Virus genome (UHGV): UHGV-1372970
Length of the DNA: 64,000 nucleotides
From: a virus
Direction: 5' to 3' (one strand)
A program made the translations under genes and the position numbers. Every line of letters starts with the position of its first letter. Position 1 is the first letter of the stretch. Shown here in pieces: positions 24,414 through 54,554 of this stretch. Below the pieces are notes generated by a model that saw nothing but the letters and a program-made list of their open reading frames with translations, searched no databases and was not told the origin of the DNA.

Positions 24414-24582
24414 AGTTCCCTCTAATTCCGCTCGGCATCTTCCTGACGCCTTAAAACAAATTGTTTTCTGGTGGTAGTTGTTTACTAAGCAACCAAAAAA
24501 CTAAAAAAACAGAGCCGTGCTCTGGATATTTATATATCTGGCAGTTCTTCTTTTAAAAACATACAGAATCAGGCTCTTTCAA

Positions 24583-24849
24583 CTACACCAGCAGCATTTT
24601 TGCTTTTGCTCTGCCCAAGATAGTCAGCCCCAGCGTCCGACGATGATGCAGCGTTTCGCCCCGCGGCCGACAGTCGTGCTTTTCAACCAGTCCCTTTTTG
24701 ATGAGCGCACGTAGAGAAAACTGCATACTCTGCTTGGAGGTTCGGTATGGCAGGATCTCCAGCAACTCATCCAGATCGAGAAGATGCCCACGCTCATAAC
24801 CGAGACTGATTGTTTTGATGATGTCTTTTTGCTTTGATGTCAGGTTCAT
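24583..24849 (-). CDS. Small winged-helix DNA-binding protein.
   Basis: 88 aa. MarR/wHTH-like segment. Confidence 0.4.
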   Translation of the reverse strand: MNLTSKQKDIIKTISLGYERGHLLDLDELLEILPYRTSKQSMQFSLRALIKKGLVEKHDCRPRGETLHHRRTLGLTILGRAKAKMLLV

Positions 24850-24858
24850 TTTGTATCC

Positions 24859-25749
24859 TTACAAAATTTTCGTTAAATCCAGCGGCGCATCCAGCGGCTG
24901 GTTATCAAATGCCAGAAGCGGTAAAACGTCCGGCAGCTGGCGACCGAAGTCTGGGTTCCGATACACGCCATACAGAGGGCTGGTGAAGCTCAGTGTGTGA
25001 ATATCCTTCAGCAGCTTCACAATACTGCTCTCGTCAGTCAGCGAGTCAGCAATGTCCTGTACTGTCGTTCCGCGGTTTCGGCCAGCTTTAGCCAGACTTG
25101 AATTTTTGTGGTAGTTCGCAACCAGATCATGCAATGCACGTTTCCTGCGCCCCTCCGCCATTTTAAGCAGCTCTTTCACCACAGACTCGTTATCGCCAGG
25201 GTCAGCTCTGAAATGGCGCTGGAAGACTTTTAGAGCGCTTTCGTAGGAGCGTGGTCGTTCTGGTTTGATAAACTGGAACCCTGCTTTCATAGCGAACGGG
25301 TTGTATTTGCTCATCGACGACTGAACTTCCAGAATTGGCTTGTCGTGCATACGACTGGCAATATTCATGAACCGGTACGAAAGCCCCAGCCCACGGTACT
25401 GCGTATCGGCCACCAGACGACTGACAACGGCGAACTCCTGATTCACGCGCTTACCCCAGATCTGATTAGCCTCTTTCGTGTTCGACGTTGGCTTAATGTC
25501 TGGGAACATGCGGTGGCGCGGCGCCAGCAGCAGCTTCGGATAGGCCATAACCAAAACACCGATAAGACGGCCGTCAAGTTCGGCGCGATAGTAGGATGGT
25601 GCGAACGGCTTGCCGTCTGTTTTGTAGTGCAACCCTTTCAGCGCGTTCCAATCCTCAACCGTCCCTCTCTTCACCACGATGCGCTCCATGAAATCCAGAT
25701 GGCGCGGGAACTCTTCAGGCTGGTGGTGCGTGATAACTACATCGTTCAT
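24859..25749 (-). CDS. GNAT-family acetyltransferase domain protein.
   Basis: Central GNAT motif A (YRGLGLSYRFMN) followed by ...NPFAMKAGFQFIKP. Confidence 0.5.
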   Translation of the reverse strand: MNDVVITHHQPEEFPRHLDFMERIVVKRGTVEDWNALKGLHYKTDGKPFAPSYYRAELDGRLIGVLVMAYPKLLLAPRHRMFPDIKPTSNTKEANQIWGKRVNQEFAVVSRLVADTQYRGLGLSYRFMNIASRMHDKPILEVQSSMSKYNPFAMKAGFQFIKPERPRSYESALKVFQRHFRADPGDNESVVKELLKMAEGRRKRALHDLVANYHKNSSLAKAGRNRGTTVQDIADSLTDESSIVKLLKDIHTLSFTSPLYGVYRNPDFGRQLPDVLPLLAFDNQPLDAPLDLTKIL

Positions 25750-26303
25750 CGCTTCATCACCTTTCTGACACTCTCGAACCCACCCTGGCGAATCGTATGA
25801 GGATCTCGTGTTACGATTGAGGCGATCGGGGGCAAGCCACCGGCTTTCTTATCAGCCTTAAACTGACGAAATGCCGCATCGAGCATTTCCGCGACGTAGC
25901 CCTGTAGATAGGTGATGGCTTCCTGATCGGACAGATGTACACCGTGAGATTCAGCCGTCGACATCGCGACGTGCAATGCTTCATGCCACAGTGTTTTCTC
26001 GTCCTGACTGTCTGGCAGGAACACACCATGCACAGAGCGATCGGCTTCGAAGTAACCCATATCAGTGACCCAGCCGCCCACGTCATCAATGAACTGGCTG
26101 TCATCCACTCCGTATAGCTGTTTCATGGTTTCGACATAACGAGCGGCGCCGAAGACAACCACGCAGCGACTGTAATAAGGCGCCACGCGGAAACCGTATG
26201 CACCGTGCGCTCTCAGCCATTCACGCCATTCGCCTTCAGTGGTGAAGCGGCGCCGCAGCTGGGCGCCCTCGAAGATTGGAAAAACCTTGCTATCAATGCT
26301 CAT
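25746..26303 (-). CDS. HExxH motif protein (putative zinc metallopeptidase).
   Basis: 185 aa with WHEALHVAMS. Overlapping stop/start with both neighbours. Confidence 0.45.
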   Translation of the reverse strand: MSIDSKVFPIFEGAQLRRRFTTEGEWREWLRAHGAYGFRVAPYYSRCVVVFGAARYVETMKQLYGVDDSQFIDDVGGWVTDMGYFEADRSVHGVFLPDSQDEKTLWHEALHVAMSTAESHGVHLSDQEAITYLQGYVAEMLDAAFRQFKADKKAGGLPPIASIVTRDPHTIRQGGFESVRKVMKR

Positions 26304-26934
26304 AGTCCACCTTCACACGTTCTTTGTAGTGCTTGGTGATCTGCACAGACGGACGCAGCGCGTTCTTTAAATCTTCGTGCGTGGTAGCGACGATAACCGT
26401 TGCGCCGGCAGCGCGGGCGGCACGCTGTAGGTTCGACGCAACAACCTGCGCCGTGACACGGTCAAGAACGGCTCCAAATTCGTCAGCTACCCAGACATCA
26501 GCCCCGGACTCAATCAGCTTGGCGATTTTGAGACGGTACTTTTGACCGTCCGACATCTCAGACGGCTTCCGCACAAACAGATAGGCATCATTCAAGCCGG
26601 CCATGGACAACAGGCCCAGCGCGTCGCTGGTGGTTTTCCCCAACTGGTCTATTACGTTGGTATCGTCCCGAAAGACGAAGTCATCAATGGACGCAACAGT
26701 TTGACCGTTTTTCGCCATCAAACTCTGTAGCTCACGCAAAATAACGGACTTACCGGAACCAGACTGACCTGTCACGTAAACGACGTCGCCGCCTGCAATA
26801 TCCAGCTCAAGGTTGTCATAGAGAGTCCACTCTTTTTCCTCCAGACCCAGGCCAAACGACTCTGCAATCTCCAACGTGCGGATCGTTTTATTGACCCGCG
26901 TGTTAAAGGCAACGTTGATAAGGTACTTACCCAT
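26293..26934 (-). CDS. Stand-alone ABC-type ATPase.
   Basis: Walker A (GQSGSGKS), ABC signature (MSDGQKYRL), Walker B (DVWVADEF), H-loop (ATTHE). Start reassigned to MGKYLINV, where ATGGGTAA overlaps the upstream stop. Confidence 0.75.
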   Translation of the reverse strand: MGKYLINVAFNTRVNKTIRTLEIAESFGLGLEEKEWTLYDNLELDIAGGDVVYVTGQSGSGKSVILRELQSLMAKNGQTVASIDDFVFRDDTNVIDQLGKTTSDALGLLSMAGLNDAYLFVRKPSEMSDGQKYRLKIAKLIESGADVWVADEFGAVLDRVTAQVVASNLQRAARAAGATVIVATTHEDLKNALRPSVQITKHYKERVKVDYEH

Positions 26935-27607
26935 GCTCCGTCGCTCCTTCGGAGATTTTCGCAGCATAAGCGAGGAAGGCAGCTTCACCCATAAGACCGG
27001 TTTCGTCTTCCATCCACGCCAGCAAATCACCCACCACGATTGCATCGCTGGTCGGGACATCTTTAAAGCCCAGAATATCGACGATACGAGTGCGGCCACC
27101 TGCGACCTCTTCCGTAATCGACTTGTGCTCTTCGCGCTGGCGCTCTGCCTCTTCGTTGAGATCGTCAATCAGCGTGTCATCGGCCATCTTTTCAGTGAGA
27201 TCTTCGATAAACACCTTCAGCTCGCGATCCTCAAAACCGTAAATATCGACACCATCATCCTGAAGCAGCTCGGTCAGCTCTTCCTGCATACGAACTGCGT
27301 CATAATCGATACTGGCGAGTCGGTTGTCTTCGAGGCGCTTAGCGCGTACAGCGCTTTCTGACAGGTCATCACGAACGATGACGGGAACAGTAGCAAGCCC
27401 CGCCAGCAGTGCGGCTTCACGTCGGCCGTGACCGGTGATGATCACTCGATGCTTATCAACGGTGATAGGCTGGTCGAACCCGCGGCTTTTGATGGCAGCG
27501 GCCAGGTCTTTGATCTGGCGTTCATCATGTTTTTTCGCGTTTTTCTCATACGGGATGAGCGTGCGCGGGTCTAAATATTTAATTTTAAACGACTTTTCCA
27601 TCGACAA
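26927..27607 (-). CDS. ParB/Srx N-terminal domain protein 1.
   Basis: ParB box (ITGHGRREAALLAG). Acidic C-terminal half. Confidence 0.75.
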   Translation of the reverse strand: MSMEKSFKIKYLDPRTLIPYEKNAKKHDERQIKDLAAAIKSRGFDQPITVDKHRVIITGHGRREAALLAGLATVPVIVRDDLSESAVRAKRLEDNRLASIDYDAVRMQEELTELLQDDGVDIYGFEDRELKVFIEDLTEKMADDTLIDDLNEEAERQREEHKSITEEVAGGRTRIVDILGFKDVPTSDAIVVGDLLAWMEDETGLMGEAAFLAYAAKISEGATEHG

Positions 27608-28298
27608 CGTCCTTGTAATATTGAGTCAGCCATACCAGGGCCTCGCCAGCGTCTTCCATGTCGCTGCCTGTCTTAATACCCTGTTCACGGATAATGGTTT
27701 TTACGATTTCAGTGACACCTTCAGCGGTATCAAAAGAAACCTTAAAACGCATGGTCTGGTGCTCCACGCCGAGGCGCTCTTTCGTTTCACGGGGGTCTGC
27801 CTCCGCTACACTGTCACCTTCCTCACCCAGCAATCCCAGCTCTTCGAGGTCGATCCGGGACTCACGCGCCAGCGTTGCCGTCAATTCCTCGTCATATGGG
27901 GCGATTTCAGCCAGCGAGTAGTCGATTTCAGCCTGAATACTCTCAATCAGACGCTGAAGCTCGACCGCATCGTCCTCACCGTAACGCTCGTTATCGACCA
28001 GAGACATTTGCTTAGCGACGTTGTCCTCAACGACGCCCACTGATGTCACCGGCACTGAAGCCATGCCCTGCTCAATAGCAGCACGCCAGCGGTGTTCTCC
28101 GCCGAGGATCTGATAGGTGCCATCTTCCATATCGCGAACGAGGATCGGCTTGAAGAAACCGAGACGGTCGATTGAGTTTTTCAGCTTGTCGAAGTTTTGC
28201 GCACCGACAACATTCGTATTCCAGGGGTTAGGCCGCAGCTGGGCTGTCTCCACCGTCAAAATACTAATTTTAACGTCCATATTTTTGATACAATCCAT
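27585..28298 (-). CDS. ParB/Srx N-terminal domain protein 2 (paralog).
   Basis: QILGGEHRWRAAIEQG ParB box. Acidic C-terminal half. Confidence 0.75.
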   Translation of the reverse strand: MDCIKNMDVKISILTVETAQLRPNPWNTNVVGAQNFDKLKNSIDRLGFFKPILVRDMEDGTYQILGGEHRWRAAIEQGMASVPVTSVGVVEDNVAKQMSLVDNERYGEDDAVELQRLIESIQAEIDYSLAEIAPYDEELTATLARESRIDLEELGLLGEEGDSVAEADPRETKERLGVEHQTMRFKVSFDTAEGVTEIVKTIIREQGIKTGSDMEDAGEALVWLTQYYKDVVDGKVV

Positions 28299-29941: not shown

Positions 29942-29986
29942 AGTTTATGGCCGGTCTTTTGACCGGCACTTATGGGGGGAAAGACC

Positions 29987-30340
29987 ATGAAAGAGCAATC
30001 TCAGCACAACTCAGACGTAGCTATCACGAAGCAACGCGGAGACGTGCACAAGCAAGATGACACGAAGTTCATAAGTTGCCATCTTAAGCTATCACCGGTT
30101 GCTGACAAACAATTGATTAAGATTCAGCAACTGTTGCGAAACGACAACATAAAATTATCAAAAACCGGTGTTATAAATCTCCTTCTTGAAAATTTAAATG
30201 CAGAACTTTTCCTTAACGATTTGTCTACAATACTCGGCAATCGTCTTCAAAATAAAATAGCCCAAGTTTTTCTCAATTCAGATATGAACGACGAAGATTT
30301 AGAGATATTGAAGAGAATGGAAAGAAACAAGAAGAAATAA
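29987..30340 (+). CDS. Hypothetical protein (AT-rich island).
   Basis: ORF 29972..30340. Start moved to the ATG at MKEQSQ. Confidence 0.4.
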   Translation: MKEQSQHNSDVAITKQRGDVHKQDDTKFISCHLKLSPVADKQLIKIQQLLRNDNIKLSKTGVINLLLENLNAELFLNDLSTILGNRLQNKIAQVFLNSDMNDEDLEILKRMERNKKK

Positions 30341-30404: not shown

Positions 30405-30938
30405 ATGAACAAGACAGATTTCACATACGGAATTAATGCAGAGAAGGAAAGAGATCTCTCATTAACTATGGGGTATTTTAAACATCTCCAGAGCAAAAGA
30501 TTACCTGTAAGGGTCGTGGCAGCTGATGGGCAGGCTTTCTCAATGCGAGTGACTGGGTTCGACCTACGGTCAAGTCGCATCTACTTCTCACCCTTTACTG
30601 ATGACGCCAAGGCGAATCGCGTCATCATACCAGCCGAGTATATAATCTCCGCAGAGGTGATTGACGCCTCAGAAGTAGACACAATCCATAAAGGCCAGCT
30701 GACGTTGAGGCGTGGTGATTTTGAAGACAATGGCTACATTCGCTCAGGCAGAGACTTCTTTCAGGTAATTCGTTACGCATACCAGCAGGGCAAGCCTATA
30801 AGGGTCTATCTGTCCGATAACCGAGTATTGGAAGGTGTATCAACCGGCATGAATGAGCAATCAGTCGGCTTAAGGCTTTCTAACAACAAAACCATCCAGC
30901 TATACTATGATTGGGTCGACCGTATTGTCCCCCTTTAA
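30405..30938 (+). CDS. Hypothetical protein.
   Basis: 177 aa ORF in the plus-strand operon. Confidence 0.5.
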   Translation: MNKTDFTYGINAEKERDLSLTMGYFKHLQSKRLPVRVVAADGQAFSMRVTGFDLRSSRIYFSPFTDDAKANRVIIPAEYIISAEVIDASEVDTIHKGQLTLRRGDFEDNGYIRSGRDFFQVIRYAYQQGKPIRVYLSDNRVLEGVSTGMNEQSVGLRLSNNKTIQLYYDWVDRIVPL

Positions 30939-30952
30939 GCAATCAAGTAGAG

Positions 30953-32214: not shown

Positions 32215-32221
32215 CAAGACA

Positions 32222-32352
32222 AGCGCCCACTATGGGCGCTTTTTTGTTTCCGCTATAAAGCCACCAGCGCCCACTATGGGCGCTTTTTGCATTTCCAGTG
32301 ATCCAGACATGCCAGACCAAAGAAAAGCGCCCATAGTGGCGCTATTTTCGTT
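32222..32352 (+). terminator. Three tandem rho-independent terminator hairpins.
   Basis: AGCGCCCA-CTA-TGGGCGCT+T6 at 32222-32247. The same hairpin +T5 at about 32266-32292. A degenerate copy (GCGCC-CATAGT-GGCGC+ATTTT) at about 32327-32350. Confidence 0.8.
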
Positions 32353-32811
32353 ATACGTTAACCATTATCAGACACGACACAAAACAGGATGCGTCAGAGC
32401 GATTCTAAGCGCTCTTTTAATCCATTGGCAAGCAATCATATTACCAACATTAAAAATCGCTTAGGATGCGTTACAGAGCGTTTTAAAGTTTGTTAAGGCG
32501 AAAAATTTTTTCCCGTCACTAGTGCCATATAATAGCGATCTGTCTGAAGTGGTTTTCTGGCTATCTAGTGGTAAAGCGCTCCAGTGGTAAAGATGGCTTG
32601 AGACATTATCTCCCCATCCCTAAAATCGACGCCTTCCGAATACCTGACATGTACTAAGCCGGGACACCGGAGCGCCCCCGACGGTTCTGTATATGCAAAC
32701 CCAGCCGTATCCCGAAAAATTCACCTATATCGGCTTTTGACCGTTTCCCTTCGGTGAAGATGCAAACGCCGAAAGGGAGAAGACACAGCCCCCTCCCCTC
32801 TTCTTCTCGGT

Positions 32812-33300
32812 TTACTTTCCGGCAAGAATGATGATGTCGGACTTGAGCCGCGTTTTCCCCAGGACGCGCCCATTAAGGATGATTTTAAATTGGTCGTGAC
32901 CTGCTTCGTAAATAACGTTGGTGTACCTTTCGCTGTTCTCCACTGCGCGGACAGCTGCGCTTACCTGATAATCGCTATCCTGATGCGGTCTTGTCTCGGC
33001 CATCCAGCTTGCGATCTGGACAGCCATTTCAAAGCGGCGGCTCTCGCAGTCTCTGCCGTGTAATGGGAAGATGAAAGTACCGAACCCGGCTGACACGACG
33101 CGAGCGGCTTTAAAGGTTTGGGCATAACCATGTCCGTTTGCAAGATCCTGACGCAGAGACTCTCTTTCCCATTCCTGCAGTTGGCTTGTCACATCATCTT
33201 CGCCGTGCATTACGGTAATAAGTCGGTTGTGGATAGTATTGAACAGCGCGGTTGATTCCCCAAAACGAGTATTTACGGTCAGTAACTGGTTCATGTGCAT
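32812..33300 (-). CDS. Hypothetical protein.
   Basis: 162 aa. AAGGAA ribosome-binding site. Early promoter element upstream. Confidence 0.6.
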   Translation of the reverse strand: MHMNQLLTVNTRFGESTALFNTIHNRLITVMHGEDDVTSQLQEWERESLRQDLANGHGYAQTFKAARVVSAGFGTFIFPLHGRDCESRRFEMAVQIASWMAETRPHQDSDYQVSAAVRAVENSERYTNVIYEAGHDQFKIILNGRVLGKTRLKSDIIILAGK

Positions 33301-33351
33301 TCCTTAATTTGTTGTTTTGTTTTGATGGAATGATTATCGCAGTAGTGCCAA

Positions 33352-33376
33352 GGCAGAAAACAAATTGTTTAAGGCC
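33352..33376 (-). promoter_or_regulatory. Early promoter of the conserved family: (minus strand) CCTTAAACAAtTTGTTTTCTGCC - about 14 nt - TGcGATAAT.
   Basis: Palindrome core at 33358-33370. Extended -10 (TGcGATAAT) at about 33331-33340. AAGGAA ribosome-binding site and ATG at 33300. Confidence 0.65.
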
Positions 33377-34378: not shown

Positions 34379-34708
34379 TTATGCGATAGCAGCAAGGGAC
34401 TCTCTTGAAATCTCTTTCTGAGCCATTTTGTTTGCATACAAGATGGCTGTCTCAAGCTGCGAAATTGGAAAGATACGCTGCACCGCTGACCATCCAGACT
34501 TCAGACCACTGCGACGCACGCTAACGACTACGCGATGAGATGAACCACTATCAAAGCTGACCGAGCACTCTTTAAATACGCGAATAGCAGTGCCATTTGC
34601 CAGGATGTCCAAAAGGGTCAAGCTCGACGTGTTTGTCTTGCGTGTTTCCTTGAACTCCGCGCGCTTGGCAATGTGATAAGCAGAGAATAAACGATCAGTG
34701 TTGTTCAT
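34379..34708 (-). CDS. Hypothetical protein.
   Basis: The listed TTG start lies inside the promoter palindrome. Start reassigned to MNNTDRLF. Confidence 0.5.
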   Translation of the reverse strand: MNNTDRLFSAYHIAKRAEFKETRKTNTSSLTLLDILANGTAIRVFKECSVSFDSGSSHRVVVSVRRSGLKSGWSAVQRIFPISQLETAILYANKMAQKEISRESLAAIA

Positions 34709-34876
34709 GGCTTCAATCTCGTTCCGTGTTTCGTTGAGAAGAATATTAACAGTGCTGATGAGGGTGAAAACAACTTGTTTAAGGCGATAAGAAAACAATA
34801 AAGGCGACTGAGCGTAGTAATTCGCCGCAGGTCTGGTGGGCTGAAAAGATAACGGATTGCTCCGCTATCTTTCTTA

Positions 34877-35239
34877 TTAGGCTGGGTCTAAATCCATGTA
34901 GAACGTCACGTCTTCCTCTTCGACCAGGCGAGCATCGTCTGGCAGTTTGTAAGCGAAATCACCAGATGCGCCATTGTCGTACTCTTCCGACATTCTCACG
35001 GCGTCCTTCGCTAGATAGTCAATGCTGGTGTCGAAGTCCACCAGGGCGAGCTTCTCTGTATTGAGTACGTGGACAGTGCCAAAATCGCCAGCGCCATACG
35101 TGTTGACCATCGCCAGCACGTTGGAAAGATCTGGTGCCACGTAAAATTCGTTCTGCCCTTCTACTGGCTCAGCGATGATCGCAGTAAAAGAAGTTTTGGC
35201 AGCGTTGCGAGTGGTGAAGTAGTGAAATCGTGTTGTCAT
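34877..35239 (-). CDS. Hypothetical protein.
   Basis: 120 aa. Early promoter upstream. Confidence 0.55.
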   Translation of the reverse strand: MTTRFHYFTTRNAAKTSFTAIIAEPVEGQNEFYVAPDLSNVLAMVNTYGAGDFGTVHVLNTEKLALVDFDTSIDYLAKDAVRMSEEYDNGASGDFAYKLPDDARLVEEEDVTFYMDLDPA

Positions 35240-35291
35240 TTTGTGTATTCCGTTGATTGTTCCGATGGATGTATTATCGCATCGTGAATCA

Positions 35292-35316
35292 GGCAGAAAA
35301 CAAATTGTTTAAGGCG
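35292..35316 (-). promoter_or_regulatory. Early promoter of the conserved family.
   Basis: Minus strand CCTTAAACAATTTGTTTTCTGCC...TGcGATAAT. Core at 35298-35310. Confidence 0.65.
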
Positions 35317-35391
35317 TTAAGAAAACAAACAAGGCGAGAAAACTGCCGTAGGGAACTTTCACACAAAAGCCACCGTAGCTGGTGGCATGTC

Positions 35392-35992: not shown

Positions 35993-36211
35993 CTATACAA
36001 TCGACTCAGAAACAGAGCAGTTCCAGGCTAGTTCAAAACTCTCAGTCCCCACAGGCACCCCAAAGGCACCGGAGCAGTGGCCTTTGGCCAACATATCTGA
36101 CACCTTGGTAATAACTTCTGCCGAGCGAATCAAATTGCCTAGCGCCTCATCGTTGCGAAGGGTCATGCTATTGTCAGATAGCGTAATGCTGATATTTAAA
36201 TGCTTGTACAT
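35993..36211 (-). CDS. Hypothetical protein.
   Basis: 72 aa. Extended -10 (TGcAATAAT) and an AUAAGAAAACAA leader. Confidence 0.45.
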   Translation of the reverse strand: MYKHLNISITLSDNSMTLRNDEALGNLIRSAEVITKVSDMLAKGHCSGAFGVPVGTESFELAWNCSVSESIV

Positions 36212-36464
36212 GTGCTTTACTCAGTTGTTTTCTTATGTTGGTTATTATTGCAATAACCAGTAGGCGAAAAAGCACATTTAAAAGAGAAACGCGATAAAAT
36301 GGCCGGACTTAACTCATTGACACCCGTCGTTTTCCTGACAGAATGAATATCGCTGGTGGTATGACCGTATTTATACGAACCTATGCCTGGGTCGCCTCAT
36401 GCCACCAGCCGCCCAACTCCCGCGACCGCTCGGTTGACCTTTCATCAAGCAGCCTCGTCTATAC

Positions 36465-36550
36465 GGCAACCTCCCCGTTTCCCGACCGCAGGCTGTATCT
36501 GGCCGTTCCCCGTTTTGCCGCGGCTAAAGGCGACCGACCCGTTTCCTGGC
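36465..36550. repeat. Iteron array A: three CCCGTTT(C/T)C units at roughly 32-bp spacing.
   Basis: ctCCCCGTTTCCCGACCGC, ttCCCCGTTTTGCCGCGGC, gaCCCGTTTCCTGGCCGT. Confidence 0.6.
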
Positions 36551-36729
36551 CGTAGGGAGTTTGTGCGGCGCCAACGTTTTTGTAGGGCTGGGAAATTACA
36601 GCTTGAATTTATGCGAAGACGGAAGCGCGACTTTTTTTCTGACCCTACTTACACAAACACCTAAACACCCAAACCTCTTCCCTCTATAACGCCTTAATCC
36701 CAATACCCCAGAACTCTCTTAACGCTACC

Positions 36730-36803
36730 TTCCCAAAACGGTAAATGACCTTCCCAAACTGTCCCTTTCCTATTCCCAAACTGTTCTGGGTATCTTCCCA
36801 AAT
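36730..36803. repeat. Iteron array B: four TTCCCAAA units at 21-23-bp spacing.
   Basis: TTCCCAAA at 36730, 36751, 36773 and 36796. Confidence 0.7.
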
Positions 36804-41642: not shown

Positions 41643-41699
41643 TTCCTTAAACAATTTGTTTTCTTATGCTAGTTATTATCTCAAACAATAAAAGGCGAT

Positions 41700-41712
41700 A
41701 AACAAATTATTT
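41700..41712 (-). promoter_or_regulatory. Early promoter palindrome plus TGaGATAAT, upstream of the methyltransferase gene. A second copy of the palindrome (41649-41661) lies in the leader abutting the ribosome-binding site.
   Basis: Minus strand CCTTAAATAATTTGTTTATCGCC..TGaGATAATAA..gcATAAGAAAACAAATTGTTTAAGGAA-ATG. Confidence 0.65.
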
Positions 41713-42390: not shown

Positions 42391-42647
42391 ACCAGCTTCT
42401 CTCTGATGGCGGCTTTAATCTGGTCGCCGCTCAAAATATTCAGTTTTTGGTCATAGAAAACAGCCTCGCCAGTTTTGGACTCATGCTGTGAAATAACACC
42501 GTAACCATACTTTTCTAACGAGTCCAGTCCGCTCTGGGCTATACGGTAGGAGTAATCGCGCCCCCATGTTGCATCATTACGTCCTTCAAACCGGGCGTGC
42601 TTGTAGTGTTCACGGATGAACAGATAGTGTTTCTGTCTGAATATCAT
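42387..42647 (-). CDS. Hypothetical protein.
   Basis: 86 aa. ATGA overlap with the downstream gene. Confidence 0.5.
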   Translation of the reverse strand: MIFRQKHYLFIREHYKHARFEGRNDATWGRDYSYRIAQSGLDSLEKYGYGVISQHESKTGEAVFYDQKLNILSGDQIKAAIREKLV

Positions 42648-42782
42648 GCGTATTGTTCCATTGTTTTCTTATGCTTATTATTTTCACACACAAGAAAAGG
42701 CAGTAAACAAGTTGTTTGGTTATTTTATTAGGCTGTAAAATGCTTTAGGACTGAAACCGGGCGATTGCAAAGGGATTATGCA

Positions 42783-43082
42783 ATGGGATTCGGTCTCCAA
42801 TGCTGGGACGAAAACGGCAATCTTGTCGTGGATACCAGCGATTACAACTGCCGGTACATCGGCACGTACAGTGTGAAAATGAATGGGAGCGATAGCTCTG
42901 TTACCCAAGGGGTCTCTGGCATTAGCTCAGGAAACTCCTTTGCTGTTGTTGTTGCAGGCTCGTGGGGTTCCGGGTTTAACGAGGTTTACTGCGTCACCAG
43001 CGACAATGCCTTTACGCTCTTCTCGGCCTCCGGCAATCACACTGAACAGACGTTCACGGTAGAAGTTTATCGATATGCTTAG
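42783..43082 (+). CDS. Hypothetical beta-rich protein (paralog A).
   Basis: Plus strand. Start at MGFGLQCWDENGNL (AAGGGA ribosome-binding site). Upstream TTGTTT-N18-TAAAAT promoter overlaps the palindrome at 42705. Confidence 0.55.
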   Translation: MGFGLQCWDENGNLVVDTSDYNCRYIGTYSVKMNGSDSSVTQGVSGISSGNSFAVVVAGSWGSGFNEVYCVTSDNAFTLFSASGNHTEQTFTVEVYRYA

Positions 43083-43091
43083 GGATAATGC

Positions 43092-43742
43092 ATGACATAC
43101 GGATTTGAAGTTTACAACGATGCGGGGGCGCTGCAACTCGACTCCGAAAACAAGACGACGCTCTTCTCTGACATCAGAGACATCTCTGGCCTGACGGATA
43201 TCGGCTATTACGCGATAGATAACCCTTTTGGGGGGAAATACCCGTTTGGTTTTTTGAAGCCGGCAGACATGCCGACATCCGGCTACCTGCATTGGTTTAG
43301 ATTAAATGCCGGCGCCTTCGCTATGCCTGGGGCCTGGAGCTTTCAAAACAACAGCGGTCAGATAATCAGAACAACGCGCAACCTCAGTGTTGAAAGCGGA
43401 TATCTCGACGTGAGGAACGGTAATGGGGATCTCATCTGGAGTGCCAAAAGCGCCAACCGTGTGCCAAGAATAAGAGGGTTCATAGACCTTCCGGCAAACT
43501 CGCCCGTTGATAGCCAGGTCATATCTTTCACGCCGGGCTTCAATCCGTGGATCCTGTTAAATGCGACACCGGGCAACATATCTGACGACGGAGAGACCGT
43601 CGGCTATTCCGGTCTACTCATTCGATGGACAGGTTCACAAATACAGGTGAAGTATGCCCGCCAGAGACAAAAGAGCTTCTCAGAGTCATTTGGTGGTAGG
43701 GGAGGGCTGCGTATCCCTTATGCTCTCTTTCCGGGATACTAA
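43092..43742 (+). CDS. Hypothetical beta-rich protein (paralog B).
   Basis: 216 aa. N-terminus MTYGFEVYNDAGALQLDSEN resembles paralog A. Confidence 0.6.
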   Translation: MTYGFEVYNDAGALQLDSENKTTLFSDIRDISGLTDIGYYAIDNPFGGKYPFGFLKPADMPTSGYLHWFRLNAGAFAMPGAWSFQNNSGQIIRTTRNLSVESGYLDVRNGNGDLIWSAKSANRVPRIRGFIDLPANSPVDSQVISFTPGFNPWILLNATPGNISDDGETVGYSGLLIRWTGSQIQVKYARQRQKSFSESFGGRGGLRIPYALFPGY

Positions 43743-43743: not shown

Positions 43744-43767
43744 GAAAAGGGGCATCAGCCCCTTTTC
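43744..43767. terminator. Bidirectional rho-independent terminator.
   Basis: GAAAAGGGGC-atca-GCCCCTTTTC at a convergent gene junction. Confidence 0.75.
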
Positions 43768-44687: not shown

Positions 44688-44742
44688 GAGGTCCTCCGTG
44701 ACAAGAAGCGCAACCTTATCGCTGCGCCAATTGTTTATTTGT

Positions 44743-45177
44743 TTATTTGTTAAGGCCAAAGCGATTCTTCAGCTCGCGGATCTGAGCATTCGCGCCGGCC
44801 ATTGCTCGCGTCTGGGCCAACTCAAAGGTATTCACGATGGTTTCGACGATGCGAAGAGCCTCTTCATGAGACATTTTATTAGCGTCTGCCTCGGGGGCTT
44901 TTTCTTTAACAGGCATCCAGCTCAGTGTCTCGTGCAGACGCTTGTTGTCTGCTTCAAGCTCTTTATTCTGGCTGGCGAAGTGAGCGATCAGAAGAAGCAT
45001 GTTCGCGGGGTCAAGCAGACCAGCCTCGCCATAATGATCCAGTTGCAGCTTTAGCTTCAGTGCATCAGTTACAGAGTCAATTTCACCGGTTGCTAGAATC
45101 GCCAGCTCAGCAATTTCGTTTGCGTGAGACAGGGTTTGTTGGCGTTGAGCTTTAATTCGTTCACAGTTCTGGCACAT
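44743..45177 (-). CDS. Hypothetical coiled-coil protein.
   Basis: Start reassigned to MCQNCERIK (AAAGGAAAA ribosome-binding site). Confidence 0.5.
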   Translation of the reverse strand: MCQNCERIKAQRQQTLSHANEIAELAILATGEIDSVTDALKLKLQLDHYGEAGLLDPANMLLLIAHFASQNKELEADNKRLHETLSWMPVKEKAPEADANKMSHEEALRIVETIVNTFELAQTRAMAGANAQIRELKNRFGLNK

Positions 45178-45264
45178 GTATTTTCCTTTTTTTGTTTTGA
45201 TAACAATTTGTTTTCTGATGTGGTTAATTATGGGCTGACCCAAAAGGGGTCAGCCCATGTTTAA

Positions 45265-46044
45265 TCAGGCGATAGCTTTCTCTGCGGTCATCTCTTTTAC
45301 GCTATCTCGACAGACGTCATGAGAGATTGAATCGACACGGATAATCCCGCGCTTGATAAGGAGTAGGGCGATAAAGCACAGACCTTTAAACGTAAATTTG
45401 GCCTGAGTATGGCCACCGACAACACTGGTTACGTTACGGCCCAGGCCGCGGTCAATGAACGTCTTCAACAGCTGGCGTGGGGTCGTGGTGTATTTGCGCT
45501 TAACGAACACACCTCCTGCCATTTCCATGCACGATGCCATTACTGCGCCAGAAGTACCTAGGATGCGGCCAGGTTCATTAACGCCGTACAGCTGATCTGC
45601 AGTGCCGGCCAGTCGGTCCATAAGAACAGCCTTCGGACTCGCTACGCTGAGTGCCTCACCCAAAGCGACATTCTCATCAGTCAGCCGCTCATTTTCTTCA
45701 ACCTGAGCAACAAGGTGGATCAGCGCCTCTTTATAGGTACGTGGCAGAGCCGGTTCTTTTACAGCCTTCTCAAGCTCAAGCCAGCGGTCTACCAGACGCG
45801 CCGTGAACTCTGGACTTAGCTGGGCTACAACGATAATGCTGTCTCGCTTCCCCATCTCCCCGGAGAACACGAAAAACGTCGCGGAGCGGCCTGCCGTGGG
45901 CTTTTCCCCCATTGGGGGAGAAGTTATAACGCCGCGTTTTACAAGTCTTTCGATGGACTGCTTGACCTTGTCATGGCGATTTCCGATCAGCTCGGCAATA
46001 TCCATGCTGGTCATCGTTGCTGTGGTGATGCTTAATTCTTTCAT
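45265..46044 (-). CDS. Phage regulatory protein, Rha / KilA-C (anti-repressor-like).
   Basis: N-terminal Rha-like HTH (SMDIAELIGNRHDKVKQSIERL). C-terminal KilAC-like domain. Confidence 0.55.
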   Translation of the reverse strand: MKELSITTATMTSMDIAELIGNRHDKVKQSIERLVKRGVITSPPMGEKPTAGRSATFFVFSGEMGKRDSIIVVAQLSPEFTARLVDRWLELEKAVKEPALPRTYKEALIHLVAQVEENERLTDENVALGEALSVASPKAVLMDRLAGTADQLYGVNEPGRILGTSGAVMASCMEMAGGVFVKRKYTTTPRQLLKTFIDRGLGRNVTSVVGGHTQAKFTFKGLCFIALLLIKRGIIRVDSISHDVCRDSVKEMTAEKAIA

Positions 46045-46232: not shown

Positions 46233-46658
46233 TCACAGGTACTGATCCAGAGACAGTTGCAGTGCCTGGGCAATTTTCTTCAGCATCAGTTCTTCTTTCT
46301 CATCGATGCCGTCGTTATCAGCGATGTCCAGGCACAGGCACAGAACATCGACCGCATCAGTGGTTCCAGCTACATCGGCCAGCTGACGCATAGCTTCAGC
46401 GTTAGCGGAGCGCGGGGAAGCTTCGTAGCGTGAACGAATATTTGAACTCATTTGGGCGATTTCGCCGGCAAACGGAGAGAAAGAGGGCAGTGCGGAGATG
46501 GTCTTCTCCAGAACGCTAATTTCTTTAGCATCGCAGGTGCCGTCGGCATATGCGATCGCATAGGCGCCCCACACGGTGGCTTCTACTGCATCGCGGTTTT
46601 CCATCTTTTTGACTTCAACAGCGGCTTTACGAACTTTCTTTTTAAAAATACCGAACAT
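46233..46658 (-). CDS. TerB-like (tellurite-resistance TerB family) protein.
   Basis: 141 aa with a TerB-type pattern (AYADGTCDAKEISVLEK...DGIDEKEELMLKKIAQAL). Confidence 0.5.
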   Translation of the reverse strand: MFGIFKKKVRKAAVEVKKMENRDAVEATVWGAYAIAYADGTCDAKEISVLEKTISALPSFSPFAGEIAQMSSNIRSRYEASPRSANAEAMRQLADVAGTTDAVDVLCLCLDIADNDGIDEKEELMLKKIAQALQLSLDQYL

Positions 46659-46715
46659 GTGATTTCCTTTGTTTTCTTATTTTAGAAAATAATTTGTTTT
46701 CTACTTCAGGCTGTG

Positions 46716-47875: not shown

Positions 47876-48436
47876 TTTGCCTTTCCGTTTTCGCTTCGCT
47901 GTTTCGCTGAATGTTTTTGTTTTCTCGGTAGGGGCTGCTGACCATACTTATCCTAACAATTCCGTTAAAAAAACTTCGGCCCATTTTGTTTAACGGTTCG
48001 GCCGAATCAGTGTTTTCTTAATCGAAAAAGTTAGGCGTAGTTTCAGCAGTCCCTCCCACTGGTAAGCACTCTCATTCTTCTGGAAAGGGCTTACTCGTAC
48101 AGGTTCCTCTTAGAATTTAACGGTTGAGCTTTTATTCTGCGCGGTAGGTATCTAAGTCGCTCCCCCCACCTCACAGCCCTGTAGCTTTTACCCTCAACCA
48201 ACGTGGGCTACCAACCCACGTTCACACCGGCAATACAGACCCTATGCTACAAATCCCGTCTGGGTCTTCCCATGAGCCTCGGCTCAAGGTTCTTTACTGC
48301 TCCACCAATCCCGACCGTTTCTCACCGAGAGACTGGTGTCGTTGCCATTTTGTAATAGCTTGGCTGCTAAAAAATTTGGCCACATAAAAGTGGCCGCGCA
48401 ATCATACATACGACAAACATATAAGTAAATTATTAC

Positions 48437-48664: not shown

Positions 48665-48847
48665 TTTTTAGTCCTTATTGTTTTCTTAACGCTATGGTAA
48701 AGCCATGCAGCAGGCTGCAAAGCTGGGGTGTTAGGTTGTTTTTTTCACAAGAACCCCAGAGGAAAAAGGAGATTAAGGCACGTAAGTGCCTGAATCTCTT
48801 AAACAGCCTTGCTCTGGATAGTATTTAAAGCTCTTTTTAAAATCTTT

Positions 48848-51482: not shown

Positions 51483-52298
51483 TTACGAAATTATTTCTCT
51501 TCTAAATTTTTTAACCAACGGTGAATCCTCTTTAACTTTCAGAGCGTTACCGTCTTTAGTCGCCATCCCCAGAACCGGTAGGATACTCATCATCTGGCCA
51601 GCCTGCGCTGAAGCGGTAGAAGATGGGTAAGGCTTATCTGGGTTGCTCATCATAGCCAGACGGAATCCGGCGGTATCAGTTGAACCGGTTTTAACCAGGT
51701 GAGTCACGGAAATTATCGTATAGACACTCAGGTCGGATAAACCCTGGCTCCATGCCATGACGTTTTGCACCTTGTCCATCGCTTTAACCGGGCACGCATT
51801 GTACCCATCCATAAAGGTCTTTCTCTCAAAACCCAGGCTGGCCATCGCATCGTCGGAAAGCTGATCCAAGGAGAAGCGTTTCCGACGTCCTGCAGGCTCT
51901 CTTTTTGCCGGCGCTGGTTCTGGTGCAGCCTTAATGACTGGCTCTTCCGTAGGCTTATCTTCCTCTTTTTCGACTTTCGTTTCAGCTACAGCCTCGATAA
52001 CCGGTTCTTCTTCAGCTGGTGGCGGGGTCACGACCTCGATTTCATCCTCGATGTCACCTAGCAACGTTGCGATCACCTCTTTCTCACTTTTCTTAACTTC
52101 GGGCTTAGGCGCGGCCACCAGCGGGAGTAGCTCACTGAACAGGTCGTCAGTTGAGAAGGTGGGTGATGTTTTCACCTCAATGACTTCAGCTTTTTCGCTA
52201 CTTGGCTCGTCCAGATTGTCCAGTTCATCGAGTTCTGACAGCATAGCGATCAGGTCTGCATTGCTGTTATCTTTACCAGTAGAATGAATAGCGCTCAT
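51483..52298 (-). CDS. Hypothetical protein with an acidic Pro/Glu-rich disordered N-terminal half.
   Basis: 271 aa. AAGGAAAACAC ribosome-binding site. Confidence 0.55.
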   Translation of the reverse strand: MSAIHSTGKDNSNADLIAMLSELDELDNLDEPSSEKAEVIEVKTSPTFSTDDLFSELLPLVAAPKPEVKKSEKEVIATLLGDIEDEIEVVTPPPAEEEPVIEAVAETKVEKEEDKPTEEPVIKAAPEPAPAKREPAGRRKRFSLDQLSDDAMASLGFERKTFMDGYNACPVKAMDKVQNVMAWSQGLSDLSVYTIISVTHLVKTGSTDTAGFRLAMMSNPDKPYPSSTASAQAGQMMSILPVLGMATKDGNALKVKEDSPLVKKFRREIIS

Positions 52299-52409
52299 GT
52301 GTTTTCCTTTGTTTTATTGTAATCATTTCGATGGATGTATCTTGCCATGTGTCATCAGGCAAAGAAGTAAACAAAACAGGTAAACAAGTTGTTTTGAGGC
52401 ATAAGAAAA

Positions 52410-52425: not shown

Positions 52426-52431
52426 TTTCTG

Positions 52432-52974
52432 TCAAGCGGGGATGGGAAAGAATCCGTAGTCCTTTCTAGCCTTCATGAAGCACTGCATCAGAAGCTGGGT
52501 ATCATAAAGCGCCCCGTGCGCCTTCTCTTCGTCGTGGACAAATCCCATGGCGACGGCCAGTTCCTGCAGGCGTGGGATCTTGCCATTCTCGCACGCCCAT
52601 CGTGCATCCATTGTGTCAATCAGAGGCCTCTGCGCCAGTTCTACGCCGCAATCACTCATCTGCTTGGTGATGAATGGAATATCGAACTTACGCCCGTTGT
52701 GAGCAACCCAGATGTCGGATGCGACCATCGCTTTTGCCAGCGCCGCGGCTTTGTCTTCGAACAGCGGAGAGTCGGCCAACATATCCAGCGAGATCCCATG
52801 AACCGCCTGGGCCTTTGCATCGATATTTCGACGTGGGTTGAAGCGCAGAGATACCTCTCTGAGTTTATTTTCTGTCTCGATCTCATAAGATACGAGGGCG
52901 ATTTCAATAATTTTGTGACCGCTATAGACATCAAGCCCAGTTGTCTCAATGTCTATGCCCGTTGCAACTGTCAT
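52432..52974 (-). CDS. DnaQ-like 3'-5' exonuclease (DEDDh).
   Basis: Exo I (IDIETTG), Exo II (HNGRKFD), Exo III (HGALYD). Confidence 0.8.
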   Translation of the reverse strand: MTVATGIDIETTGLDVYSGHKIIEIALVSYEIETENKLREVSLRFNPRRNIDAKAQAVHGISLDMLADSPLFEDKAAALAKAMVASDIWVAHNGRKFDIPFITKQMSDCGVELAQRPLIDTMDARWACENGKIPRLQELAVAMGFVHDEEKAHGALYDTQLLMQCFMKARKDYGFFPIPA

Positions 52975-53378
52975 AAGCGCTCTGCACCCTGTTTAATAAG
53001 TAAATGCACTACGCTGAGTGCCTTTTTCATAGTCGCGGCAGCACTGTCGCATTCATATTCGACTGGCTTGTATTCGCTCGCCATGACGCGAACCATGACC
53101 TTTCTTGTCGTGGTATCCGGCGACACTGAGATATAAACGCCACCGGTTGTTTTCAGGTAAAGTGGGAACGGGGAAGGGCGCTCTCTTTCTATCGAGTTCA
53201 TCGCCTCTTCAAGAAGTTCAGCCACTTCAGCACTGACCAGCCCCATGGCAGAGCAAAACACCGCATGGATTGCTGCTTTTGCCTCATATGTAGGCATCAG
53301 CCCACTAGTCTGCTTTGTGATGATGTCTACGAGTGTCTCAGACACCTTTCGATCCAGCTCTTCATCGAAGCTATACAT
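52971..53378 (-). CDS. Hypothetical protein.
   Basis: 135 aa. ATGA overlap with the downstream gene. Confidence 0.5.
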   Translation of the reverse strand: MYSFDEELDRKVSETLVDIITKQTSGLMPTYEAKAAIHAVFCSAMGLVSAEVAELLEEAMNSIERERPSPFPLYLKTTGGVYISVSPDTTTRKVMVRVMASEYKPVEYECDSAAATMKKALSVVHLLIKQGAERL

Positions 53379-53431
53379 GTGTTTTCCTCTGTTTTTTTAT
53401 TATTCTCACCCATCCAGAAAGGGACTCAACA

Positions 53432-54082
53432 TCAATGGATAGGTTCGCAGGAATGCTCGGAATCAGTGGCGATCGTATTCACGACCTCTGTCAGAGACTC
53501 CACCCGGAGATCCAAATCAATGACCTCATCCTTCATAAAAGCAAAGCGCGACAACATCCCGCGGTTCGGCAATTTTGAGAATGAGAGGATGAACGACGAC
53601 ATCAGCATATCCATGTGGTTCACATAGAAGGGGTTTAGCGAGCCTCGCTGCTTTCGCTGGTGATCTTCTTCAGTTAACGGAACACCCGGGCGGAGAATCA
53701 GGCTCAGGTTGAAGTTTGCGATGGTCGTCTCTGTGCATACCATGTGAGTCTGGGTGTACAGTTCCATGACCTCGTCATTTTTGTAGTGCGGCGCCGCAAT
53801 GTCGTGCGTATGAGCCATAACATCGATCGGTGTTCTGTCGGTAATGAATCCGGTCTTACTAAGACCAGGGGCTTCAATTATCGAAGCGATATGCCCAGCT
53901 ACCATCAGCTGCGCTTTCATTCGCTCAATGACGGGGATGTCGTTGCGTGACAGATCCACGCCACTATCCAGAAGGAAGTCGCCGACTTTCGCGTCGATAT
54001 ATGGAATGCCAGTGGCCTCACTGTATGCTTTTGCCAGTGTTGTTTTGCCAGTTCCCTGCGCACCGCAAAGGCCTATTTTCAT
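53432..54082 (-). CDS. P-loop NTPase, putative (deoxy)nucleotide kinase.
   Basis: N-terminal Walker A (MKIGLCGAQGTGKTTLAKA). Confidence 0.5.
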   Translation of the reverse strand: MKIGLCGAQGTGKTTLAKAYSEATGIPYIDAKVGDFLLDSGVDLSRNDIPVIERMKAQLMVAGHIASIIEAPGLSKTGFITDRTPIDVMAHTHDIAAPHYKNDEVMELYTQTHMVCTETTIANFNLSLILRPGVPLTEEDHQRKQRGSLNPFYVNHMDMLMSSFILSFSKLPNRGMLSRFAFMKDEVIDLDLRVESLTEVVNTIATDSEHSCEPIH

Positions 54083-54554
54083 TTCAACTTCCTGTAAACA
54101 ATTTGTTTAAACGCTGGGGAATATCCATCACCTGCGTATTCATGAGTGGTGGCAACTGCTTCAAACCCCATCTGACGCATTTTCTTAAATGGGAAGAATG
54201 CGTCAGCGGCCGGCACGCTGGTATCGATATGACTAATCCAGATCTCATCGACATGCGGAAGCATCGCCTCATATACAACGCCGCCCCAATAACCCAGGAA
54301 TTGGGGAACTCACGCAGACACCGCGCCAAAGAGGCAACGTGAAAGCCTGACGGCGCCTCACCACCATGAGTGAGCATGACATTGCGACGTCCGGGAAGAG
54401 GCCTTCCCAAACTCTCTGCTGTCTTCCTCCCCATGATGACCGTAAAGCCGTGCGTCAGCTCTTTGAAGAGTTGCAGATCTGCAGGGCATTTCCACGGCAG
54501 ATCATTTCCTTTGCCAATCTCAAAATTTTGGCCAACGGCCACTATCATTCTCAT
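54079..54554 (-). CDS. folA: Dihydrofolate reductase, reading frame interrupted by a frameshift near 54270.
   Basis: N-terminal 94 residues (MIVAVGQNFEIGKGNDLPWKCPADL...LGRPLPGRRNVMLT...WVIGAALY) and the C-terminus (EAMLPHVDEIWISHIDTSVPAADAFFP...) are both DHFR-like. They lie in frames offset by one nucleotide. Confidence 0.8.

Follow-up and report, generated by a model that had tools for sequence, protein, structure and literature searches.

The present analysis deals with a stretch of 64,000 nt from the virus genome UHGV-1372970 (the window, by which we mean the whole stretch) and with a 13-bp palindrome, AAACAA-N1-TTGTTT, that is dispersed over it. At the DNA level, the structural half of the window matches Salmonella phage SSU5 at about 76%, and 62 non-mobilizable plasmids from Klebsiella, E. 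coli, Shigella and Citrobacter match positions 33-43 kb. The top matches for the latter part are K. oxytoca plasmids such as pCAV1099-111 (pCAV; 95%), and all of the best 15 of the 62 plasmids are 108-118 kb in size. Together, these matches identify the window as some 64 kb of an SSU5-like phage-plasmid, with the minus strand carrying most genes. The tail genes are followed by terS (24413), by an operon encoding two ParB-like proteins, two ABC proteins and a winged-helix protein, by a plus-strand block that runs from a helicase gene to 32464 and, finally, by many small early genes and by nucleotide-metabolism genes.

The dispersed palindrome and its conservation

With no more than one mismatch, AAACAAnTTGTTT occurs 15 times in the window (24454, 33358, 34768, 35298, 37034, 37566, 38815, 39108, 41649, 41700, 42705, 45201, 46687, 52382 and 54096), whereas 0.27 copies were expected and never more than two were found across 100 shuffles. 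Exact copies of AAACAANTTGTTT number 11, against an expectation of 0.00. All 15 sites lie within 1-2 nt of the positions given by the original prediction, in which a model had described, from the letters of the window, a family of early promoter or operator elements. The two degenerate copies that it had placed near 44729 and 32480 are also present, but just the GCCTT flank and the left half have been retained. Moreover, an unbiased count over all perfect 6-N(0-6)-6 palindromes, made separately for each genome, ranks AAACAA-N1-TTGTTT first in the window (11 copies), in the SSU5-like phage-plasmid Cyrano (9 copies) and in SSU5 itself (11 copies). The half-site AGAAAACAA is likewise enriched, with 18 copies compared to 1.0 expected.

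The expectation that relatives carry the same family was borne out in all related loci that were examined. There are 18 copies in Cyrano, 20 in 100 kb of SSU5 and 20 in the whole of pCAV1099-111; the palindrome is also found in KpPF25, in Kp1498, in a Cronobacter-type element, in locus L159 and, at 0.43 copies per kb, in 67 related IMG/VR loci that were anchored on a homologue of the regulator FljA. A lineage with an altered motif was sought for a co-variation test and none was found, as the 67 FljA-anchored loci, the Cronobacter-type element and L159 all carry the identical palindrome. Orthologous sites were compared between four Klebsiella elements, namely two K. pneumoniae plasmids, pCAV1099-111 and the window. 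Identity amounts to 98.5% over the 12 specified bases, to 77-84% over the flanks and to 62% at the centre base. By this comparison, the palindrome is under purifying selection, and since both arms are conserved while the centre base is free, the footprint is that expected of a dyad-symmetric protein site. Full-text literature searches returned no description of the palindrome motif, of its regulators, of FljA in phage-plasmids or of SSU5 operators.

Two fixed registers on promoters

Seven of the 15 copies (33358, 34768, 35298, 38815, 39108, 41700 and 42705) are of an upstream type. Read on the minus strand, they have the layout (G)CCTT-AAACAAnTTGTTT-TCTgCC, followed by a -10 hexamer that is preceded by TGn. 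The distance from TTGTTT to the hexamer is exactly 19 nt (16 nt to the TG) in all seven, and the spacer sequences differ. Each of them has an extended -10 box (TGnGATAAT, TGnTAATAT or TGnGAAAAT), and a consensus, TTGACA-like -35 box is absent from these units. If transcription starts 7 nt after the hexamer, the dyad centre would lie at about -38, with the right arm in the -35 slot. A leader type is represented in the window by 41649 and 45201 and comprises the majority of the SSU5 and Cyrano copies. Here, the -10 hexamer is located 13 nt before AAACAA, which equals 10 nt before AGAAAACAA, so that the dyad would cover +8 to +20 with its centre at about +14. Its spacing to the ATG is variable, by about 11-35 nt. 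Indeed, the position of the palindrome is tied to the -10 box and not to the Shine-Dalgarno (SD) sequence or the ATG. The copies of the window, together with their half-sites and degenerate relatives, are the following.

33333-33370, minus strand: upstream-type unit serving gene 32812-33294, GCCTT-AAACAATTTGTTT-TCTGCC, 19 nt, TGCGATAAT
34743-34798, minus strand: upstream-type unit serving gene 34379-34708, palindrome 34768-34780, 19 nt to TGTTAATAT at 34743-34751, extra upstream TTGTTTTCT at 34790-34798
35273-35328, minus strand: upstream-type unit serving gene 34877-35239, palindrome 35298-35310, 19 nt to TGCGATAAT at 35273-35281, extra upstream TTGTTTTCT at 35320-35328
38771-38827, minus strand: upstream-type unit serving gene 38436-38756, palindrome 38815-38827, TGAGATAAT at 38790-38798, half-site AGAAAACAA at 38771-38779, 10 nt after the -10 box
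39083-39120, minus strand: upstream-type unit serving gene 38827-39054, palindrome 39108-39120, 19 nt to TGTGATAAT at 39083-39091
41649-41712, minus strand: double-operator promoter serving the DUF4942 DNA methyltransferase gene 39969-41636, palindromes 41700-41712 (about -38) and 41649-41661 (about +14), TGAGATAAT at 41675-41683
42661-42741, not assigned to one strand: palindrome 42705-42717 shared by divergent promoters; on the minus side TGTGAAAAT at 42680-42688 and half-site 42661-42669, serving 42387-42647
42736-42741, plus strand: TAAAAT, N18 from the 42705 palindrome, serving 42783-43742
45201-45213, minus strand: leader-type copy with one mismatch, 13 nt after CATAAT and 23 nt before the ATG of 44743-45177
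24454-24466, minus strand: exact copy upstream of terS (23823-24413), AGA-core-tAAGG orientation, after the terminator of the 88-aa gene
37034-37046, minus strand: copy with one mismatch, AGA-core-AAG orientation, within the region 36260-37700, which is poor in open reading frames (ORFs); conserved in pCAV, KpPF25 and Kp1498
37566-37578, minus strand: exact copy in cATAAGA-core context, heading the ORF-poor region
46669-46699, minus strand: copy with one mismatch at 46687-46699 (AGA-core) plus half-site AGAAAACAA at 46669-46677, serving the TerB/TciA-like gene 46233-46658
52382-52394, minus strand: exact copy right after an intrinsic terminator, no -10 box at canonical spacing, 83 nt before the ATG of 51483-52298
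54096-54108, minus strand: exact copy in the 3' end of gene 54084-54554, 13 nt before the ATG of 53432-54082; conserved in Klebsiella relatives
36225-36233, minus strand: half-site AGAAAACAA alone, 10 nt after AATAAT, serving gene 35993-36211; upstream palindrome decayed
47917-47925 and 48678-48686, minus strand: further half-site leaders resembling that at 36225
44727-44757, minus strand: degenerate copy, GGCCTT, AACAAATAAACAAATAAACAATTGG, then GATAAG; right arm gone
32481-32499, minus strand: degenerate copy, GCCTT-AACAAACTTTAAAA

In the window, Cyrano and SSU5, three divergent lineages with 51 sites in all, the positions of -10-like hexamers have two sharp maxima relative to the palindrome, one at 19 nt downstream (12 sites) and the other at 12-14 nt upstream (18 sites). 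The extra conserved flank, TCT or AGA, always faces the -10 box. Four copies (24454, 37034, 37566 and 46687) share the AGA-core orientation with the leader type, and the scan saw no -10 box at the leader register for them. The two palindromes of the methyltransferase promoter, of which the one at 41649-41661 abuts the SD sequence AAGGA, have centres 51 bp apart, and the same centre distance recurs in paired copies of five elements, including Cyrano, SSU5, KpPF25 and Kp1498. At the position orthologous to 24454, SSU5 and Cyrano carry a tandem pair of palindromes 25 bp apart. Several leaders (36225, 38771, 42661, 46669, 47917 and 48678) retain the proximal arm of the second position as a half-site.

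All seven upstream-type copies thus support the original prediction of a single, co-regulated class of promoters that combines a dimer-type palindrome with an extended -10 box, and the plus-strand TTGTTT-N18-TAAAAT promoter that it had seen at 42705, making this copy a site between divergent promoters, was confirmed. Other parts had to be revised. The flanks GCCTT...TCTGCC with a downstream extended -10 box, attributed to most copies, hold for seven of the 15; the spacing is not about 14 nt but invariantly 16 nt to the TG and 19 nt to the hexamer; and the palindrome does not simply replace the -35 box but occupies two registers, at about -38 and about +14. The sequence cAUAAGAAAACAA, which had been described as a conserved leader, is the arm of the second operator position that lies nearer to the promoter; there, the full palindrome is present at 41649 and in most Cyrano and SSU5 copies. 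Finally, the late operon had been regarded as free of the motif, but its first gene, terS, has the copy at 24454 directly upstream.

The common spacer starts (GCCTT) and the shared -10 context suggest descent from one ancestor, AGAAAACAA stands alone in several leaders, and the motif is invariant over hosts of four genera. These observations could also be explained without any dedicated regulator encoded by the element, either by an intrinsic, duplicated promoter-leader cassette, in which an A/T-rich upstream element is combined with an A-rich unstructured leader that aids translation, or by the site of a conserved host protein. A near-identical cassette in many enterobacterial prophage contigs that are not SSU5-like fits this explanation as well. 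We nevertheless consider it doubtful because the two arms are under selection and the centre base is not, as is typical of a binding site with dyad symmetry, and because the palindrome has been kept in two quite different promoter positions. Moreover, we know of no enterobacterial factor with such a site.

Expression in the carrier state

RNA sequencing (RNA-seq) of E. coli LF82 carrying Cyrano gave a median background of 9.8 (PMC9928086, S1 Table). The first genes behind motif promoters read at or below this level in most cases, namely terS (7.1), CYRAN_47 (7.8), CYRAN_58 (5.7), CYRAN_85 (7.0), CYRAN_87 (7.1), CYRAN_93 (6.3), CYRAN_101 (7.5), CYRAN_108 (5.7) and CYRAN_110 (6.7) (PMC9928086). 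Higher readings were obtained for CYRAN_70, CYRAN_105 and CYRAN_106 (about 12-13), for the helicase gene (21) and for CYRAN_111 (25), and the only motif-bearing operon that is clearly on is that of parA (50) with its followers (89 and 55) (PMC9928086). CYRAN_93 and CYRAN_108 have the -38 copy alone, yet they are silent in the lysogen. Promoters with a TGn-extended -10 box are expected to fire unaided; their silence therefore argues for repression, and a strong intrinsic promoter of the kind considered above would not be silent in the lysogen.

By far the most abundant RNA of the phage-plasmid in the lysogen belongs to a different gene, CYRAN_43 (about 7,000 compared to a background of 10; PMC9928086). 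Its product of 184 aa has no Pfam match, and the gene (L071:40268-40822, minus strand; pCAV 69605-70096) adjoins the integrase gene and the gene of an Xre-type helix-turn-helix (HTH) protein, outside the window.

A probable dispersed operator set of one repressor

With a probability of roughly 0.55, the palindromes are the dispersed DNA operators of one sequence-specific dimeric or tetrameric repressor, whose binding and repressing action we infer from the site architecture and from the silent genes downstream. In the first register, the right arm of the site would overlap the -35 slot of a sigma-70-type promoter, with the centre at about -38 and 19 bp before the extended -10 box; in the second, the site would cover +8 to +20 around a centre at about +14, 13 bp after the -10 box. 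A protein bound in either register would exclude or trap RNA polymerase. The pairs with centres 51 bp apart are separated by about five helical turns and would thus present both sites on one helix face, so that cooperative binding, or a loop across the -10 box, would be feasible. The regulon would comprise about 15 sites in the window and about 20 per whole element, and it would include small early genes, the DNA methyltransferase gene, replication and nucleotide-metabolism genes, parA and terS. The repressor would silence about 20 promoters during the plasmid life of the phage.

Candidate binders

The original prediction had named two candidate binders, of which the first is the following.

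24583-24849, minus strand: 88-aa winged-helix protein, weak LexA_DNA_bind match, 75% identity to CYRAN_123

CYRAN_123 reads 7.8 in the lysogen compared to the background of 9.8, which speaks against the winged helix as the repressor because its homologue is at background where the promoters are silent. The second candidate, the Rha-family protein (45265-46044), is replaced by a GIY-YIG nuclease in KpPF25 and has no annotated counterpart in Cyrano, and the motif persists in both.

An alternative close to the original prediction is a site for an activator or dual switch. A lytic-only factor, for example the same winged helix, would recruit polymerase from -38 to the promoters lacking a -35 box and shut off others from +14. 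A centre at -38 is the classical position of a class II activator, the upstream-type copies have no TTGACA-like -35 box, and silence of the promoters coincides with silence of the winged-helix homologue. Moreover, the protein is the most conserved small DNA binder (75%), and its operon is apparently under the control of another palindrome family. However, promoters with a TGn-extended -10 box normally need neither a -35 box nor an activator, and the +14 register, from which no activation is expected and which fits a repressor instead, holds most copies of SSU5 and Cyrano. The leader-type promoters of Cyrano and SSU5 have usable -35 and -10 boxes and are still silent in the lysogen, so that a repressor would be needed in any case. 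We thus regard such an activator or dual switch as unlikely.

Three further candidates for the repressor were rejected. The ParB-like proteins (27585-28298 and 26927-27607) could have been analogues of the plasmid repressor KorB, but their homologues CYRAN_119 and CYRAN_120 read 5.0 and 9.5 in the lysogen, with the background at 9.8. The Xre-type HTH protein encoded beside the integrase gene, outside the window, is expressed (96), but its own control region has another palindrome type and not this palindrome. The product of gene 29972-30340, which resembles ribbon-helix-helix (RHH) proteins, has no Pfam match, and the residues of its strand that are predicted to face the DNA differ (S/N-H-K or Y/H-Q-A/Q) between lineages in which the motif is invariant. 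This plus-strand gene lies between the helicase gene and the fljA-like gene, and the strand-helix-helix pattern of its product (KFISCHLKLS...LSKTGVINLLLENL) suggests an RHH fold; its homologue CYRAN_117 is strongly expressed in the lysogen (114; PMC9928086).

Tentatively, at about one chance in three, the repressor may be a small, putative RHH partner of ParA (WP_047719674.1 in pCAV1099-111, CYRAN_29 in Cyrano and SSU5_034 in SSU5). In five of five elements (pCAV, Cyrano, SSU5, the Cronobacter-type element and L159), a gene for a small Walker-type ParA is followed by the partner gene, and the palindrome is located in the parA leader. The partner is expressed in the lysogen (89; PMC9928086), and its segment QGRPxRGKxxIxSRTMSxEDE...TRSDVIRAA does not vary between lineages, whose identity elsewhere is about 50%. 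A profile search found just a small family, of which the remote member P0069 passes the Pfam models RHH_8 (25.5 compared to 25.4 bits) and RHH_1, and P0055 matches RHH_1 weakly (E=0.005). By binding the palindrome, the ParA partner would autoregulate parA and, as a type Ib partition adaptor comparable to omega or, in function, to KorB, would combine the roles of a partition protein and a global silencer.

Several points weigh against a repressor reading of the palindromes or against its assignment to the ParA partner. The transcription starts are placed by the -10 boxes alone, and about 20 of the 51 sites, for example 52382, 54096, 24454 and 37034, have no -10 box at either register by a simple criterion. 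The RNA-seq data come from a relative with about 40-80% protein identity and not from this element, and low RNA levels in the lysogen could also reflect decay. As regards the ParA partner, its gene lies outside the window; direct comparisons with Pfam, PDB, Foldseek and hhalign (the last against ParG, CopG and omega) gave nothing significant; and its invariant N-terminal arm could serve the stimulation of ParA rather than the reading of DNA. There are also other conserved DNA binders, namely the winged helix (75% identity) and the ParB-like proteins (63-65%), and a host protein is a possible binder.

A site in DNA or in RNA

Another alternative is that the palindrome acts in the mRNA, where it would be read by a homologue of FljA encoded in the plus-strand block.

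30405-30938, plus strand: FljA-family protein of 177 aa with tandem Sm/Hfq-like domains, full-length match to Pfam PF03614 (Flag1_repress), E=5.7e-29

According to this explanation, the FljA homologue would read the leader copies in the mRNA, block translation and trigger decay, and the -38 copies would be secondary or read otherwise. The gene is syntenic in all relatives, among them SSU5 and Cyrano (35-40% identity), and the protein is also present in Klebsiella elements. Klebsiella is non-flagellated, and the target there can therefore not be the flagellin mRNA. An AlphaFold model (AF2; mean predicted local distance difference test score, pLDDT, 72) has two tandem domains of one helix plus five strands each, and a Foldseek search with it gave Hfq structures as the best PDB matches, with template-modelling (TM) scores of 0.7-0.83 on the target and root-mean-square deviations of 1.3-1.6 Å. 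On the strength of this model, the FljA family appears to be a tandem Sm/Hfq-like protein family. The FljA homologue is expressed in the lysogen. FljA of Salmonella is reported to bind an operator in the fliC mRNA, to block its translation and to destabilise it (PMC4122451, PMC2652032).

The fliC leader, taken from Salmonella and Citrobacter genomes (...CCCAAUAACAUCAAGUUGUAAUUGAUAAGGAAAAGAUCAUG; also given as ...AAUAACAUCAAGUUGUAAUUGAUAAGGAAAAGAUCAUG), shares AUAA, CAAGUUGU and AAGGA, in this order and ahead of the AUG, with leaders of the window such as cAUAAGAAAACAAaUUGUUUAAGGAAAUGACCAUG; by a rough estimate, the chance of sharing the 8-mer CAAGUUGU is about 0.02. An operator in the transcribed 5' untranslated region next to the SD sequence is indeed found at 41649, 45201 and 54096 and in most SSU5 and Cyrano copies, but not at the seven upstream-type copies, which lie upstream of the predicted start. 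The copy at 42705 is upstream of both predicted divergent starts and should therefore escape transcription from the local promoters, and intrinsic terminators immediately precede those at 41700, 35298 and 52382; all four would thus be expected to function at the DNA level. Moreover, the element is anchored to the -10 box and not to the SD sequence or the ATG, it is hard to see what its exact dyad symmetry would contribute in single-stranded RNA, and the leader RNA is unstructured (-2.9 kcal/mol, z +0.5). The FljA homologues are merely 35-40% identical between lineages in which the motif is invariant, and no palindrome was found within 2 kb of the fljA-like gene. An operator that functions in RNA is thus improbable; it may apply to the leader copies, but it would not account for the upstream-type copies or for the tie to the -10 box.

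Two further RNA-level roles were rejected. An RNA hairpin or a member of a known RNA family does not fit the unstructured leader, for which there is no Rfam match and no compensatory change in the arms among the variants, and an intrinsic terminator does not fit because a 6-bp stem with a 1-nt loop cannot fold. A read-through RNA over paired sites is predicted to form a 17-bp stem that hides the SD sequence (-23.2 kcal/mol, z -4.2), but this stem is a trivial outcome of two palindromes, and a terminator is located just upstream.

The two modes could also be combined. The 13-nt element would then be read in the DNA by the putative RHH partition protein and again at the mRNA 5' end by the tandem Sm/Hfq-like FljA paralogue, with a translational lock on the same genes as the result. 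In this case, FljA of Salmonella, the phase-variation repressor, would be a domesticated phage-plasmid regulator. We regard this combination as speculative and rather improbable.

Comparison with known systems

The operator set proposed here resembles that of the C1 repressor of phage P1, a plasmid prophage in which scattered lytic promoters each overlap one operator copy and one protein silences many units. In both cases, the operators are dispersed over the promoters of an element that lives as a plasmid. However, the P1 C1 operator is an asymmetric 17-mer (ATTGCTCTAATAAATTT), whereas the present site is a perfect 13-bp dyad of unrelated sequence, and no C1-like match was found among the proteins scanned. 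Furthermore, there are two palindrome families in this element, and the other one, described below, looks more like the set of a master repressor. A second parallel is provided by KorB of the IncP plasmid RK2, a binder from a partition operon that acts as a global silencer. Its operator OB is a 13-bp palindrome (TTTAGCSGCTAAA) with a dozen or more dispersed copies and a class at about -39/-40, which resembles the upstream class at about -38 described here, and the candidate binder is also from the partition operon. However, the OB sequence is unlike the present palindrome, and KorB is a ParB-family CTPase, whereas the candidate is a putative RHH protein and the ParB-like homologues are silent in the lysogen. 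The palindrome system does not belong to the C1 or KorB family because the site sequence and the type of binder differ.

The ParA partner is reminiscent of omega (pSM19035) and ParG (TP228) in that a small protein with a weakly supported RHH signature is encoded after a small Walker ParA and a short repeat is present in its own promoter. Omega also controls several promoters besides its own. By contrast, the sites of omega and ParG are arrays of heptads or tetramer boxes at few promoters, and here about 20 single palindromes are spread over 60-100 kb. Judged by these sequence features, membership of the omega/ParG class is possible. As in the FljA-fliC system, an FljA-family protein is encoded and the leader copies lie between the start and the SD sequence, with CAAGUUGU...AAGGA in common, but half of the copies are outside any leader and the site is a perfect DNA dyad anchored to the -10 box. 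All seven upstream-type units also resemble sigma-70 promoters with an extended (TGn) -10 box and no consensus -35 box, a likeness that describes the promoter chassis and not the palindrome. In MotA-type middle promoters, where an activator box takes the place of the -35 box and a phage activator and co-activator are needed, the box is centred near -30, which differs from a centre at -38 combined with a second class at +14; no search aimed at MotA or AsiA homologues was made.

A second palindrome family and further features

A second dispersed palindrome, TAAGTA-N2-6-TACTTA, has nine matches in the window compared to 0.26 expected.

9059, 15495 (AAGTAAGTATATACTTACTT), 19148, 28304, 47305, 48423, 49495, 56074 and 61232, strand not given: TAAGTA...TACTTA sites

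It occupies the spacer that separates hexamers resembling -35 and -10 boxes (TTGATA-N17-TAATAT or TACTAT), occurs also inside the late structural operon and in the divergent region between the ParB and helicase genes, and is conserved in Cyrano and SSU5. As it adjoins the gene of the Xre-type HTH protein in pCAV and Cyrano, it is probably the operator set of this repressor.

A stretch of about 120 bp is near-identical in locus L005 and about 30 other IMG/VR loci (e.g. L013, L014 and L017), with one copy per locus, on enterobacterial prophage contigs of diverse sizes. Its components are a hairpin with CCTT at the end, the palindrome, TCTgcttttt and a box resembling an extended -10. The stretch lies between convergent genes in L005 and may be a mobile terminator-promoter cassette. 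In the window, a bidirectional terminator near 43746-43766 closes the unit beside 42705. The GC-rich hairpin AGCGCCCACTATGGGCGCTTTTT occurs three times at 32215-32350, twice as direct and once as inverted repeat, 3' of the plus-strand gene block, and these hairpins look like stacked bidirectional terminators.

The region 36260-37700 comprises about 1.4 kb without a convincing ORF, is A/C-rich on the transcribed (minus) strand and is conserved in relatives. A promoter-like leader with the palindrome at 37566 stands at its head, the second copy (37034) follows 532 bp further on, and several short direct repeats are present, such as ACCTTCCCAAA, which occurs three times. The region could be a long non-coding RNA or an origin; an Rfam scan of the window, including this region and the leaders, gave no match. 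Positions 1-6900 (minus strand) have no closed ORF, as a very large tail gene extends past the start of the window; its orthologue in pCAV1099-111 has 12,426 nt (4,141 aa). The junction between the ABC-ATPase and ParB-Srx genes (26300-26940) is the sole part of 9-29 kb with a DNA-level match (about 76%) to SSU5-like phages of E. coli and Klebsiella, and the ABC ATPase encoded there has the highest conservation (84%) of the small proteins compared between pCAV and Cyrano.

Implications for SSU5-like phage-plasmids

Clinical Klebsiella, E. coli and Salmonella commonly harbour SSU5-like phage-plasmids, some of which carry resistance genes. In the literature, pHCM2 of S. Typhi has been named alongside SSU5. 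How these elements remain quiescent as plasmids and how they switch to lytic growth is essentially undescribed. The present analysis provides a conserved wiring diagram with two palindrome families, about 20 promoters with a defined operator geometry and a short list of candidate regulators. If an RHH partition protein indeed reads the palindrome, the segregation machinery would be the genome-wide silencer of lytic promoters in SSU5-like phage-plasmids. A partition adaptor in this role would provide a mechanistic link between segregation and the choice of lysis or lysogeny.

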